Below are positions 7,860-10,800 of a stretch of 64,000 nt of DNA, piece after piece. Location: assembly GCA_044892525.1 (NCBI GenBank), contig CM097885.1, forward strand, positions 1,552,001 through 1,616,000, written 5' to 3'. This stretch comes from Schmidtea polychroa (Eukaryota). How positions within the stretch are numbered: the first letter of the stretch is position 1; every line of letters begins with the position of its first letter. The position numbers were made by a program, and so were the translations under genes. The notes under the pieces were generated by a model. That model was not told the DNA's origin. It made no database searches and saw only the letters and a program-made list of their open reading frames with translations.

Positions 7860-10800
7860 TCACGGAATTTCCCTCGTTATCCAAATCCTGTGTTTATCCC
7901 GGCGTATAATGAACTTCCTCATTTCATCAAAGGCCAACAGATAGAAACTGAATGGGAGAGCTATCAACCACCATGTGAACCTGAATTTATTATTTGATTA
8001 ATTGAATTTGTCCAATTCTATCCAACTGCCCACCTCAAGTTGCCAAGTTTCAATACAGTCTGAACCCCAGGAGTATACACTATAAATATTGCCAGTCCCG
8101 TTTCAAAGAACAGAGATAACGTGAGTTGGTGATTCCACATTCCTTGCTGAAACAATGAGTTCCTTCTGGTCTTGACAGCGAGAATGTTGCACCACTGCTG
8201 CACCATTACCGACACAAAGTAGGCGCTATAGACCGTGATTTCCAAATTTTTCCTTTGAATGTAAGTCTTAATTACAGAACTATTTCTAATGATAAATCTT
8301 TATTTTCACATTTACCCATTCTTGGCCGTAGGAATCTTTTAGGTCGTTTATTATTGGATTTTCCCAGCTTTCCCTGATCCCGACCAGCCTATCGGGCAAA
8401 AATCCGCTCTCAGCCATAATCACAAAATATGCAAAGAAAGACCCAACGGCTTGAATAATTCCTAATTGTCCATGTGTTAAGGAGATCAATCGGGATGTCA
8501 CTAGATTATCTTTTTGTGGATTGCGAGGCTTTCTTCTCATGATGTTTGATTCAGCCCCTTCGTATGCTAACGCAATCGCCGGCATCTGCATTGAAATAAA
8601 AATAAATCTTTATAACCTTTTAAATGTGGCTTTTTATGTGAACTTTCATTCGAATTATTCTTAACAGAAATCAAATTCTAGCATTAACAAGCCAAGCGTG
8701 ATTTGTACCAAAATAAATACAACACATTCGTGTCTGATAGGCCCCTGTTTTTTTGGTGATGAAATCACACATATCCAATCACTTATATAAAATGACAATT
8801 ATGTGTATCCAATCACAAATATCCAATAACAATAAATAACCGATATCCAATGATACAACCAATCATGAGCATCCAATCACAAATATCCAATAACAATAAA
8901 TCACCGATATCCAATGATACAACCAATCATGAGCATCCAATCACAAATATCCAATAACAATAAATAACCGATATCCAATGATACAACCAATCATGAGCAT
9001 CCAATCACAAATATCCAATAACAATAAATAACCGATATCCAATGATACAACCAATCATGAGCATCCAATCACAAATATCCAATAACAATAAATTACCGAT
9101 ATCCAATGGCACATCCAATCATGAGCATCCAATCACAAATATCTAATAACATACAATAAATCCCCGATATCCAATGGCACAACCAATCATGAGCATCCAA
9201 TCACAAATATCCAATAACAATAAATCACCGATATCCAATGATACAACCAATCATGAGCATCCAATCACAAATATCCAATAACAATAAATAACCGATATCC
9301 AATGGCACAACCAATCATGAGCATCCAATCACAAATATCCAATAACAATAAATCACCGATATCCAATGATACAACCAATCATGAGCATCCAATCACAAAT
9401 ATCCAATAACAATAAATAACCGATATCCAATGGCACAACCAATCATGAGCATCCAATCACAAATATCCAATAACATACAATAAATCACCGATATCCAATG
9501 GCACAACCAATCATGAGCATCCAATCACAAATATCCAATAACAATAAATAACCGATATCCAATGGCACAACCAATCATGAGCATCCAATCACAAATATCC
9601 AATAACAATAAATAACCGATATCCAATGGCACATCCAATCATGAGCATCCAATCACAAATATCCAATAACATACAATAAATCACCGATATCCAATGGCAC
9701 AACCAATCATGAGCATCCAATCACAAATATCCAATAACAATAAATAACCGATATCCAATGATACAACCAATCATGAGCATCCAAACACAAATATCCAATA
9801 ACAATAAATAACCGATATCCAATGATACAACCAATCATGAGCATCCAATCACAAATATCCAATAACAATAAATAACCGATATCCAATGATACAACCAATC
9901 ATGAGCATCCAATCACAAATATCCAATAACGTACAATAAATCACCGATATCCAATGGCACAACCAATCGTGAGCATCCAATCACACATATTCAGTTAAAC
10001 ACAATTCTAATCACACACACACGCATGCATATAAACAAACGCTCGAATATTGTAACATTTCTAAATTCAATTCGATGTAAGCAGAAAAATATGTACACTG
10101 CTCAATGTATGCAATCAGAATTATTAGTGAAATGCAGAGTGAGTAATGAAATAAATGACTAATAATAAATTGGGTTCATTTCCTGGTGGTGAAAATGAAA
10201 ATTAAACATAATTTTCAGTTATTTGTAATTTGGTGTATTTTCTAGACAATCATCAAATTGTGACGAGGGAATTTTCTACAAATAGCAGATATATATATAT
10301 ATATATATAGGATCATTTAGGTCGAATCTGATAATTCATACAATAATATGTTACCATATCTGTTCCCAAGTCGATGCATAGGATCGTGATTGTTCCCAGT
10401 GCCAAAGGAATGTTGATCACTGTGTAAGCCAAGAACGGAACTATTTCTGGAATAGTTTTCACCAAAATGTAAGTAATGGACTTCTTCAGATTGTCAAAAA
10501 TAATCCTGCCTTGCTCGATGCCTACAACAATGGAAGCAAAATTGTCATCCAGCAGGATCATGTCCGCCGCCTGCTTACTGACATCGCTTCCAGAAATTCC
10601 CATTGCGATCCCTAAAAGTTTAAATTACTTAATTTGACCAACATTTGAGATCATTTATTTTATAATTATTATTATGATTATTTAAAACAATAAAATGATA
10701 ATTTAAGCCTTTTGCTGCAAATAATGTATTTAATGAAAAAATTTTTGACTATAAGATAGTCCTTGTCAATCTCCTGAAATTTAGCAATCTTCTTCCCGAA

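Follow-up and report, generated by a model that had tools for sequence, protein, structure and literature searches.

What does an X,K-ATPase transport when a lysine stands in its first ion site and the aspartate of its third site has become asparagine, and is such a protein a retuned pump or a decaying copy of an ordinary one? The question is raised by a gene in the window (the whole 64,000-nucleotide stretch that was analyzed), which is AT-rich animal DNA with short introns. An earlier note, made from the letters alone, had proposed that the third, Na+-specific site of this pump was lost together with a serine-to-lysine change in TM5, by a route other than that of the vertebrate H,K pumps.

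The alpha-subunit gene, its ion pocket, and its tail

The gene occupies positions 7860..15327 of the reverse strand and has 16 exons, with a 3054-nt coding sequence for 1017 amino acids. Exons 1–8 lie at 15327-15310, 15253-15081, 15034-14854, 14809-14696, 14650-14516, 14463-14346, 14305-14037, and 13479-13281, and exons 9–16 at 13237-12993, 12942-12713, 11934-11673, 11634-11406, 10611-10355, 8585-8316, 8266-8034, and 7980-7860; exon 1, of 18 nt, is the least certain exon of the model. All 15 introns are GT-AG, and the 3054 nt contain no internal stop or frameshift. The phosphorylation motif DKTGT in exon 8 (motif region 13353..13391, reverse strand) is intact, as are TGES, KGAPE, DPPR, TGD, and GDGVND, and the SYGQ loop motif of the putative beta-assembly region is retained. 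A similarity search gave E-values of 5e-38 to Na,K pumps and 1e-13 to SERCA, and the nearest relative, a canonical pump with Ser775, Asp926, and a terminal Tyr-Tyr (P0001), is 68 per cent identical (667 of 982 aligned residues). By its catalytic motifs, its TM4–TM6 type, and its closeness to Na,K and H,K alphas, the gene product is a P2C (X,K-ATPase) alpha subunit. Protein searches and HMMER on 50 per cent representatives returned no ortholog, the best identity being 58 per cent across the TM8 exon and 84 per cent in the conserved exon 13. Tandem arrays lie in intron 13 (64-bp unit, 8796-9990) and intron 10 (48-bp unit, 12233-12473), and intron 12 and the region downstream of the gene both carry a dispersed AT-rich repeat.

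From TM5 to TM8, residue n of the gene model corresponds to residue n-1 of pig alpha1 (3wgu), whose numbering we use unless both are given. The ion-site segment of TM5 (10445..10471, reverse strand) carries Ile773 (T772I), Val775 (T774V), Lys776 (S775K), and Thr777 (N776T), so that the canonical Na,K ligand set Thr772/Thr774/Ser775/Asn776 is absent and reads Ile/Val/Lys/Thr here; Tyr772 (Y771), Pro779 (P778), and Glu780 (E779) are retained. The lysine codon is at 10459-10457 and aligns to Ser775, which bears out the S775K of the earlier note. TM6 (10358..10372, reverse strand) retains Asp805 (D804) and Asp809 (D808) and has no gastric-type Glu at 804. In TM8 (8174..8206, reverse strand), Met921 (V920M), Gln923 (V922Q), Asn927 (D926N), and Val931 (C930V, not Arg) accompany the retained Gln924 and Trp925. 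The asparagine reported earlier at Asp926 is indeed present: the residue, encoded by AAC at 8188-8186, falls opposite Asp926 of pig alpha1 and Asp923 of human alpha3 in gap-free alignments. Around these substitutions, a network of Tyr771, Gln923, Trp924, Glu954, and Pro778 persists, together with the TM4 glutamate and Asn326 (=Asn324). Y847H is a further change, and across the TM8 region (residues 906-935) 10 of the 19 invariant positions differ. T772I, T774V, N776T, and C930V come on top of the changes listed in the earlier note. The positions at issue are at least 95 per cent invariant among 35 canonical pumps (thinned from 99); because of this invariance, the 15 of 15 GT-AG introns, and the lack of internal stops, we do not attribute the odd residues to chance.

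The tail likewise departs from the canonical one. The last exon (7980-7860) ends in a TGA stop at 7862-7860, preceded by WITREIP (7860..7883, reverse strand, with the stop): the Trp and the Arg-Glu are retained, the terminal Thr-Tyr-Tyr is replaced, and no Tyr occurs at the tail end. The Asp at the end of TM10 and the C-terminus lie 21 residues apart, the same as in most complete tails counted. Since the Trp and the Arg/Lys-Glu pair still align and this distance is typical, the tail is a substituted homolog of the canonical tail, neither a truncation nor an intron read-through; the KETYY ending is gone, as had been claimed, at unchanged length. An alternative last exon that restores the two tyrosines, which would have overturned the earlier claim, was obtained from none of 1457 donor–acceptor pairs tried between the end of exon 16 and position 2400; eight of these pairs end in other aromatic pairs. 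We also discarded a putative 27-nt intron at the stop (7863-7837), with which the ending would still be without Tyr and through which a contig of sequencing run X8 passes unspliced.

Twelve runs contain the region wholly or partly, none with an RNA status on record, and four of them (X1, X5, X8, and X10) were compared over 7660-8780, a stretch that includes the Asn codon and ends short of the Lys codon. In contigs of X8 and X10, which belong to two studies, introns 14 and 15 are precisely missing, and the overhang at 8586 reads on into exon 13; X8 and X10 are taken as RNA because of these spliced joints, and introns 13–15 are thus spliced out in probable RNA contigs. X5 and X1 show no splice joints, and the DNA of the window may itself stem from X1. 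The spliced X10 contig is 3019 nt long, close to the length of the coding sequence. An X8 contig covers 7692-7874 without gaps, so that the stop and the 3' UTR are unspliced there, while 7875-7930 is uncovered in X8; among the compared runs, the stretch from 7893 to the stop is not spanned by any one RNA contig. No other letter was seen in the Asn codon in any of the four runs. Expression, for which the earlier note had proposed a transcript check, is accordingly supported by spliced joints from two studies in which the Asn codon does not vary.

The window also holds an X,K-ATPase beta-subunit gene (33868..36073, end approximate, forward strand; 6 exons, about 299 amino acids, open model). Its last exon matches Pfam PF00287 above the cut-off, and six Cys follow the membrane segment, spaced as three pairs; the sequence is divergent but open, with an extra Cys just past that segment, and a search of the beta exon against the Atlas gave no match. 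Lying 18.5 kb from the alpha start in divergent orientation, it is a candidate partner of the alpha subunit. A helicase gene of the Helicase_C_2 family (XPD/RTEL1-type) is represented by its C-terminal exons at 1719-2332 (forward), which adjoin a 10-bp satellite array (1-1690). There are a retroelement-like fragment at 6272-7036 (reverse), a pogo/Tc5-type DDE transposase ORF at 38727-39884 (forward), a hAT fragment at 43249-43719 (forward), and a long gag-like ORF with zinc knuckles at 60836-64000 (forward) that runs off the window and has a degraded copy near 2800-3800. Two further ORFs are a 296-amino-acid frame without a Pfam match (46133-47023, reverse), whose PLDLS motif we take to be CtBP-binding-like, and a RING-finger ORF (56883-57434, reverse).

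Descent of the gene and recurrence of its residues

To place the protein, we used a quick tree of 43 rows and a careful PMSF tree of 21 rows, from which 22 long, partial, or redundant rows had been dropped; ATP4A is represented there by one row (P0147), and full-length ATP12A is absent. In the quick tree, the alpha protein falls in a weakly supported group of long branches. In the careful tree, it sits on a long branch (0.68) with the canonical pumps P0001 and P0034 (support 100/99), the next neighbor being the gastropod Plakobranchus (100/99) and the exact sister weakly resolved (84/43). The nearest row without a species name may be flatworm-like. Three alternative groupings were rejected by approximately unbiased (AU) tests: with ATP4A (P-value = 0.008, for one ATP4A row and with ATP12A outside the tree), with a clade of His775/Thr776/Asn926 proteins (P-value = 1e-36), and with a Lys775/Asn926 protein of the ostracod Darwinula (P-value = 0.003). 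The alpha gene thus descends from the Na,K alpha lineage, inside the 100/99 canonical clade of the careful tree. It most likely arose in a spiralian-like animal by lineage-specific duplication of a canonical alpha, and its proton-pump-style design was likely reached independently of vertebrates.

With canonical Na,K-ATPase alphas (pig alpha1, 3wgu; human alpha3, 8d3u; P0001), the protein has in common its architecture, its catalytic motifs, its tree position, and the residues Tyr771, Pro778, Glu779, Asp804, Asp808, Gln923, Trp924, and Glu954, and it differs from them by T772I, T774V, S775K, N776T, D926N, C930V, and the absence of the terminal Tyr-Tyr. Rat ATP12A (ngHKA; 7x20; PMC9463140) is alike in Lys775, Asp804, Met920, Gln922, and a neutralized site III position, so that the resemblance of the VQQ pattern to ATP12A seen earlier is real, with both Met920 and Gln922 matching; however, ngHKA keeps Asp926 and neutralizes it by Arg930, replaces Trp924 by Ile and Pro778 by Ala, and keeps Asn776 and the C-terminal tyrosines. 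Gastric ATP4A (P0147; 5ylu) has Lys775 and Pro778 in common with the alpha protein but differs in Glu at 804 and 920, Asp926 with Arg930, and a YY tail. Of the vertebrate H,K traits, the alpha protein therefore has the lysine at 775, whereas the Asp926–Arg930 pair and Ile924 are absent (Asn, Val, and Trp instead). The earlier statement that vertebrate H,K pumps keep Asp926 and the terminal tyrosines agrees with ATP4A P0147, and a route other than theirs is upheld both by their Arg930-neutralized Asp926 and by the rejection of a joint origin with ATP4A. The Artemia alpha2KK pump (8k1l; PMC10756188) is likewise a natural invertebrate Na,K paralog with Lys in the ion pocket and a reduced stoichiometry, which for the present protein is a prediction. 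It has Lys at 324 and 776, an intact site III, and electrogenic 2Na+:1K+ transport, whereas here we find Asn326, Thr777, and an altered site III.

How often do these residues recur? Among 405 stored proteins, a redundant set enriched by the query, 193 had both positions 775 and 926 mapped; they comprise 159 with Ser/Asp, 19 with His/Asn, seven with Ser/Asn, one with Lys/Asn, one with Lys/Asp, and six others. Met920 occurs in 1 and Gln922 in 5 of 318 stored proteins. In 148 new 50 per cent cluster representatives, position 926 is Asp in 118, Asn in nine, another residue in 14, and unaligned in seven. The tail is complete in 46 of 150 representatives, and a two-aromatic ending is found in 32 of 35 with Asp versus two of five with Asn. 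When metagenome contigs were scanned for the Asn926 pattern, 22 loci were returned, 11 of which are P2C genes; the other 11 were dropped as chance matches. Residue 775 in seven of the metagenome P2C loci is Val (one), Asp (three), Ala (one), or His (two), without a Lys, and the tail seen in seven ends in YY in three and not in four. On these counts, D926N is recurrent and often accompanied by tail erosion. Some of the metagenome paralogs (L004, L007, and L008 over TM5–TM8, L013, and L022) combine Asp or His at 775 with Ala778 and Asn926; in some TM6 is altered, and no introns interrupt the matched part of L013 and L022.

Among the proteins mapped, the Lys/Asn pair is confined to this gene and the Darwinula stevensoni protein (CAG0898014.1, P0005), and no mapped protein combines it with Ile772 and Val774. 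The ostracod protein, separate in the tree, keeps Thr772 and Thr774 and has Thr in place of Pro778; it is annotated as an ordinary Na,K-ATPase, and the model of its gene includes an internally duplicated part and runs on at the tail. The His775/Thr776/Asn926 clade (P0139, P0140, P0141, P0145, P0158, P0011, and P0044), well supported and likewise separate, has in common with the alpha protein a basic residue at 775, Asn926, Thr776, and Tyr915, but keeps Thr772, Thr774, and the last Tyr; the penultimate Tyr is gone, the ending being Cys-Tyr or Leu-Tyr. Beside Ser775/Asn926 and Ser775/Asp926 paralogs, this clade forms a graded series for site III loss. A protein of the crab Scylla (P0271; UniRef A0A0P4W1Y6) has Lys at 776, the Artemia-type position, and Thr at 926. 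We found no description of a natural Lys775/Asn926 pump in the literature searched, which lay mostly outside subscription journals.

Proposed transport mode and its rivals

A swap of one proton, or one sodium, for one potassium is likely. The reading we favor, by residue comparison and analogy with known pumps, is that the alpha subunit may belong to a pump that exchanges ions 1:1 without net charge, probably H+ for K+; Lys would occupy site I, and Asn would neutralize site III. We hold the case for this reading to be evenly balanced. In ngHKA, one K+ is bound at site II and the Lys pairs with the Asp808 equivalent (Young et al. 2022, PMC9463140). The Lys makes that pump 1H+:1K+, and neutralization of the Asp926 equivalent, there by Arg949, blocks site III (PMC9463140). 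By the same logic, Lys775 would act as a tethered cation in site I and Asn926 would mimic a permanently neutralized Asp, taking the role of the Arg930 salt bridge of vertebrate H,K pumps; with sites I and III occupied or neutralized, only site II would cycle, and the neighboring beta gene could supply the partner subunit. The Lys is reported to be required for proton selectivity (Artigas et al. 2023, PMC10756188). S775K alone stops the Na,K pump and abolishes Rb+ uptake, probably via a site III block (PMC10756188), and S775K and D926N are therefore expected together.

The tail fits the same proposal. In ngHKA, the C-terminal tyrosines cap a water cavity that reaches the Asp926 equivalent (PMC9463140); with no Asp to protonate, such a cap would no longer be needed and its sequence could drift, and tail loss is likely secondary to the loss of the cap's job. 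The proton leak that grows when the tail is mutated is largely shut off by D926N (Vedovato and Gadsby 2014, PMC3971657). That Asp926 and the terminal tyrosines are required for the third site, as the earlier note had it, is overstated: a D926N-equivalent mutant still cycles, with outward current and about one third of the turnover (PMC3971657), and deletion of the two tyrosines lowers Na+ affinity several-fold and does not stop the pump (Vedovato and Gadsby 2010, PMC2894553). Similarly, the coordinated loss of site III holds in that the site is heavily altered along with S775K, but "coordinated" goes too far, as the tail may have drifted after D926N.

Several points count against the H+/K+ reading. 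Strict H+ selectivity is predicted to require that sites I and III both be destroyed (PMC9463140), and Trp924 to Ile belongs to the predicted recipe (PMC9463140); here, Trp924 is retained. Position 776, where ngHKA has an Asn that holds K+ at site II (PMC9463140), is Thr. Finally, bulky residues at 775 prevent cycling of the Na,K pump (PMC10812997). With Trp924 retained and Asn776 changed, the exported ion could be either H+ or Na+.

A sodium pump of reduced stoichiometry (1 Na+:1 K+ or 2:1) that works via site II, moving fewer ions for steeper gradients as Artemia alpha2KK does, is the foremost rival, which we consider unlikely. It draws on descent from an Na,K alpha, on the retained Trp924, Tyr771, Gln923, Pro778, and Glu954, on C930R Na,K pumps, which are electroneutral and still Na+-dependent (PMC9463140), and on a 2024 study of Ser777 mutants in which bulky residues leave Na+ binding at site II, and phosphorylation, in place while blocking cycling (PMC10812997). 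The lysine, however, stands at the H,K position 775 and not at the Artemia position 776, Lys775 is the residue reported as required for proton selectivity (PMC10756188), and Asn324 is retained, unlike in alpha2KK.

The same blocked cycling would suit a protein that hydrolyzes ATP or is phosphorylated with little transport and acts together with the beta subunit in signaling, at junctions, or as a structural component. Five TM5/TM8 ligand positions have changed together, S775K by itself abolishes Rb+ uptake (PMC10756188), and bulky 775 substitutions block K+-dependent cycling (PMC10812997). Against this stand the conserved catalytic domains, the retention of all four TM4–TM6 membrane carboxylates and of Glu954, and a Lys775 that is functional in vertebrate H,K pumps (PMC9463140), and we judge such a role improbable. 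There is a slim chance that the pocket now serves a different substrate or mode, for instance counter-transport of NH4+ or cation export independent of K+: T772I, T774V, N776T, Y847H, and C930V are seen in neither vertebrate family, and Asn926 pumps elsewhere with Asp, Ala, Val, or His at 775 indicate that the family has explored many pockets, but the site II carboxylates are canonical and there is no positive evidence for a particular ion.

Retuning versus decay, and wider meaning

Where the protein has changed bears on whether it was retuned or is decaying. We scored 505 positions that are at least 95 per cent invariant in the 35 canonical pumps. Departures number 15 of 288 in the cytoplasmic part (95 per cent retained) versus 28 of 135 from TM5 to the end (Fisher P-value = 3e-6), and this concentration in the membrane argues for retuning rather than decay. 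TM1–4, with 13 departures in 77, is indistinguishable from TM5-to-end (P-value = 0.59); since divergence there is nearly as great, the changes extend beyond site III. Two long-branch pumps that have Ser775 and Asp926 show no departure in 41 positions of TM5–6 and zero or one in 19 of TM8, while ATP4A and other Asn926 paralogs have a similar membrane-biased profile. Seven coding variants between runs comprise four synonymous and three replacement changes (pN/pS about 0.2, P-value = 0.04, from small counts).

An inverted partial copy of alpha exons 4–10 with their introns (21924..23851, forward strand; 97.8 per cent identical) is cut inside exons at both ends and is without TM5–TM10; it differs from the alpha gene by three synonymous changes and one replacement, again small counts. 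The copy has Tyr, the canonical state, where the full gene has Phe311, and a degraded DNA-polymerase-like mobile fragment (about 20400-21520) precedes it.

A decaying gene, which the earlier note had named as fatal to its claim, is not what the open 3054-nt frame, the cytoplasmic conservation, and the pN/pS of about 0.2 describe. That relaxed selection is letting a redundant duplicate decay, or that the odd residues stem from assembly or gene-model error, is very improbable, as the gene's end branch (0.68 vs 0.12 for the sister), the broken partial copy nearby, and the replacements among the coding variants (three of seven) are set against a frame without stop or frameshift, spliced probable RNA in two studies, the same Asn codon in four of four runs, 95 per cent retention of cytoplasmic invariant sites, and no YY ending from any splice pair.

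The conversion of a 3Na+:2K+ into a 1H+:1K+ pump has so far been studied through mutated vertebrate pumps. Here, a natural and probably expressed protein alters sites I and III together, as in the prediction of Young et al. (2022, PMC9463140). Its chemistry differs in that Asn replaces an Asp–Arg salt bridge and Trp924 is retained, a combination that could separate the roles of those residues. The recurrence of the pattern in other invertebrates suggests an overlooked convergent class of P2C pumps labeled as ordinary Na,K-ATPases. More tentatively, and with the weight of probability somewhat against it, a true invertebrate H,K-ATPase may have evolved from an Na,K pump independently of vertebrates, the recipe of a basic 775, Thr776, Asn926, and a decaying Tyr cap having been found by animals at least three times. 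In planarians and tunicates, the evidence for H,K-ATPase activity comes largely from drugs, and RNAi has named a gene in planarians (PMC4895326, PMC5443973, PMC5526266). If the tentative proposal is true, the gene would offer a natural test of the prediction that a pump becomes proton-selective only when sites I and III are lost together, and its sequence could guide the search for the genes responsible for H,K-ATPase activities in planarians, sea urchins, and tunicates, where such activities are known mostly through drug effects.
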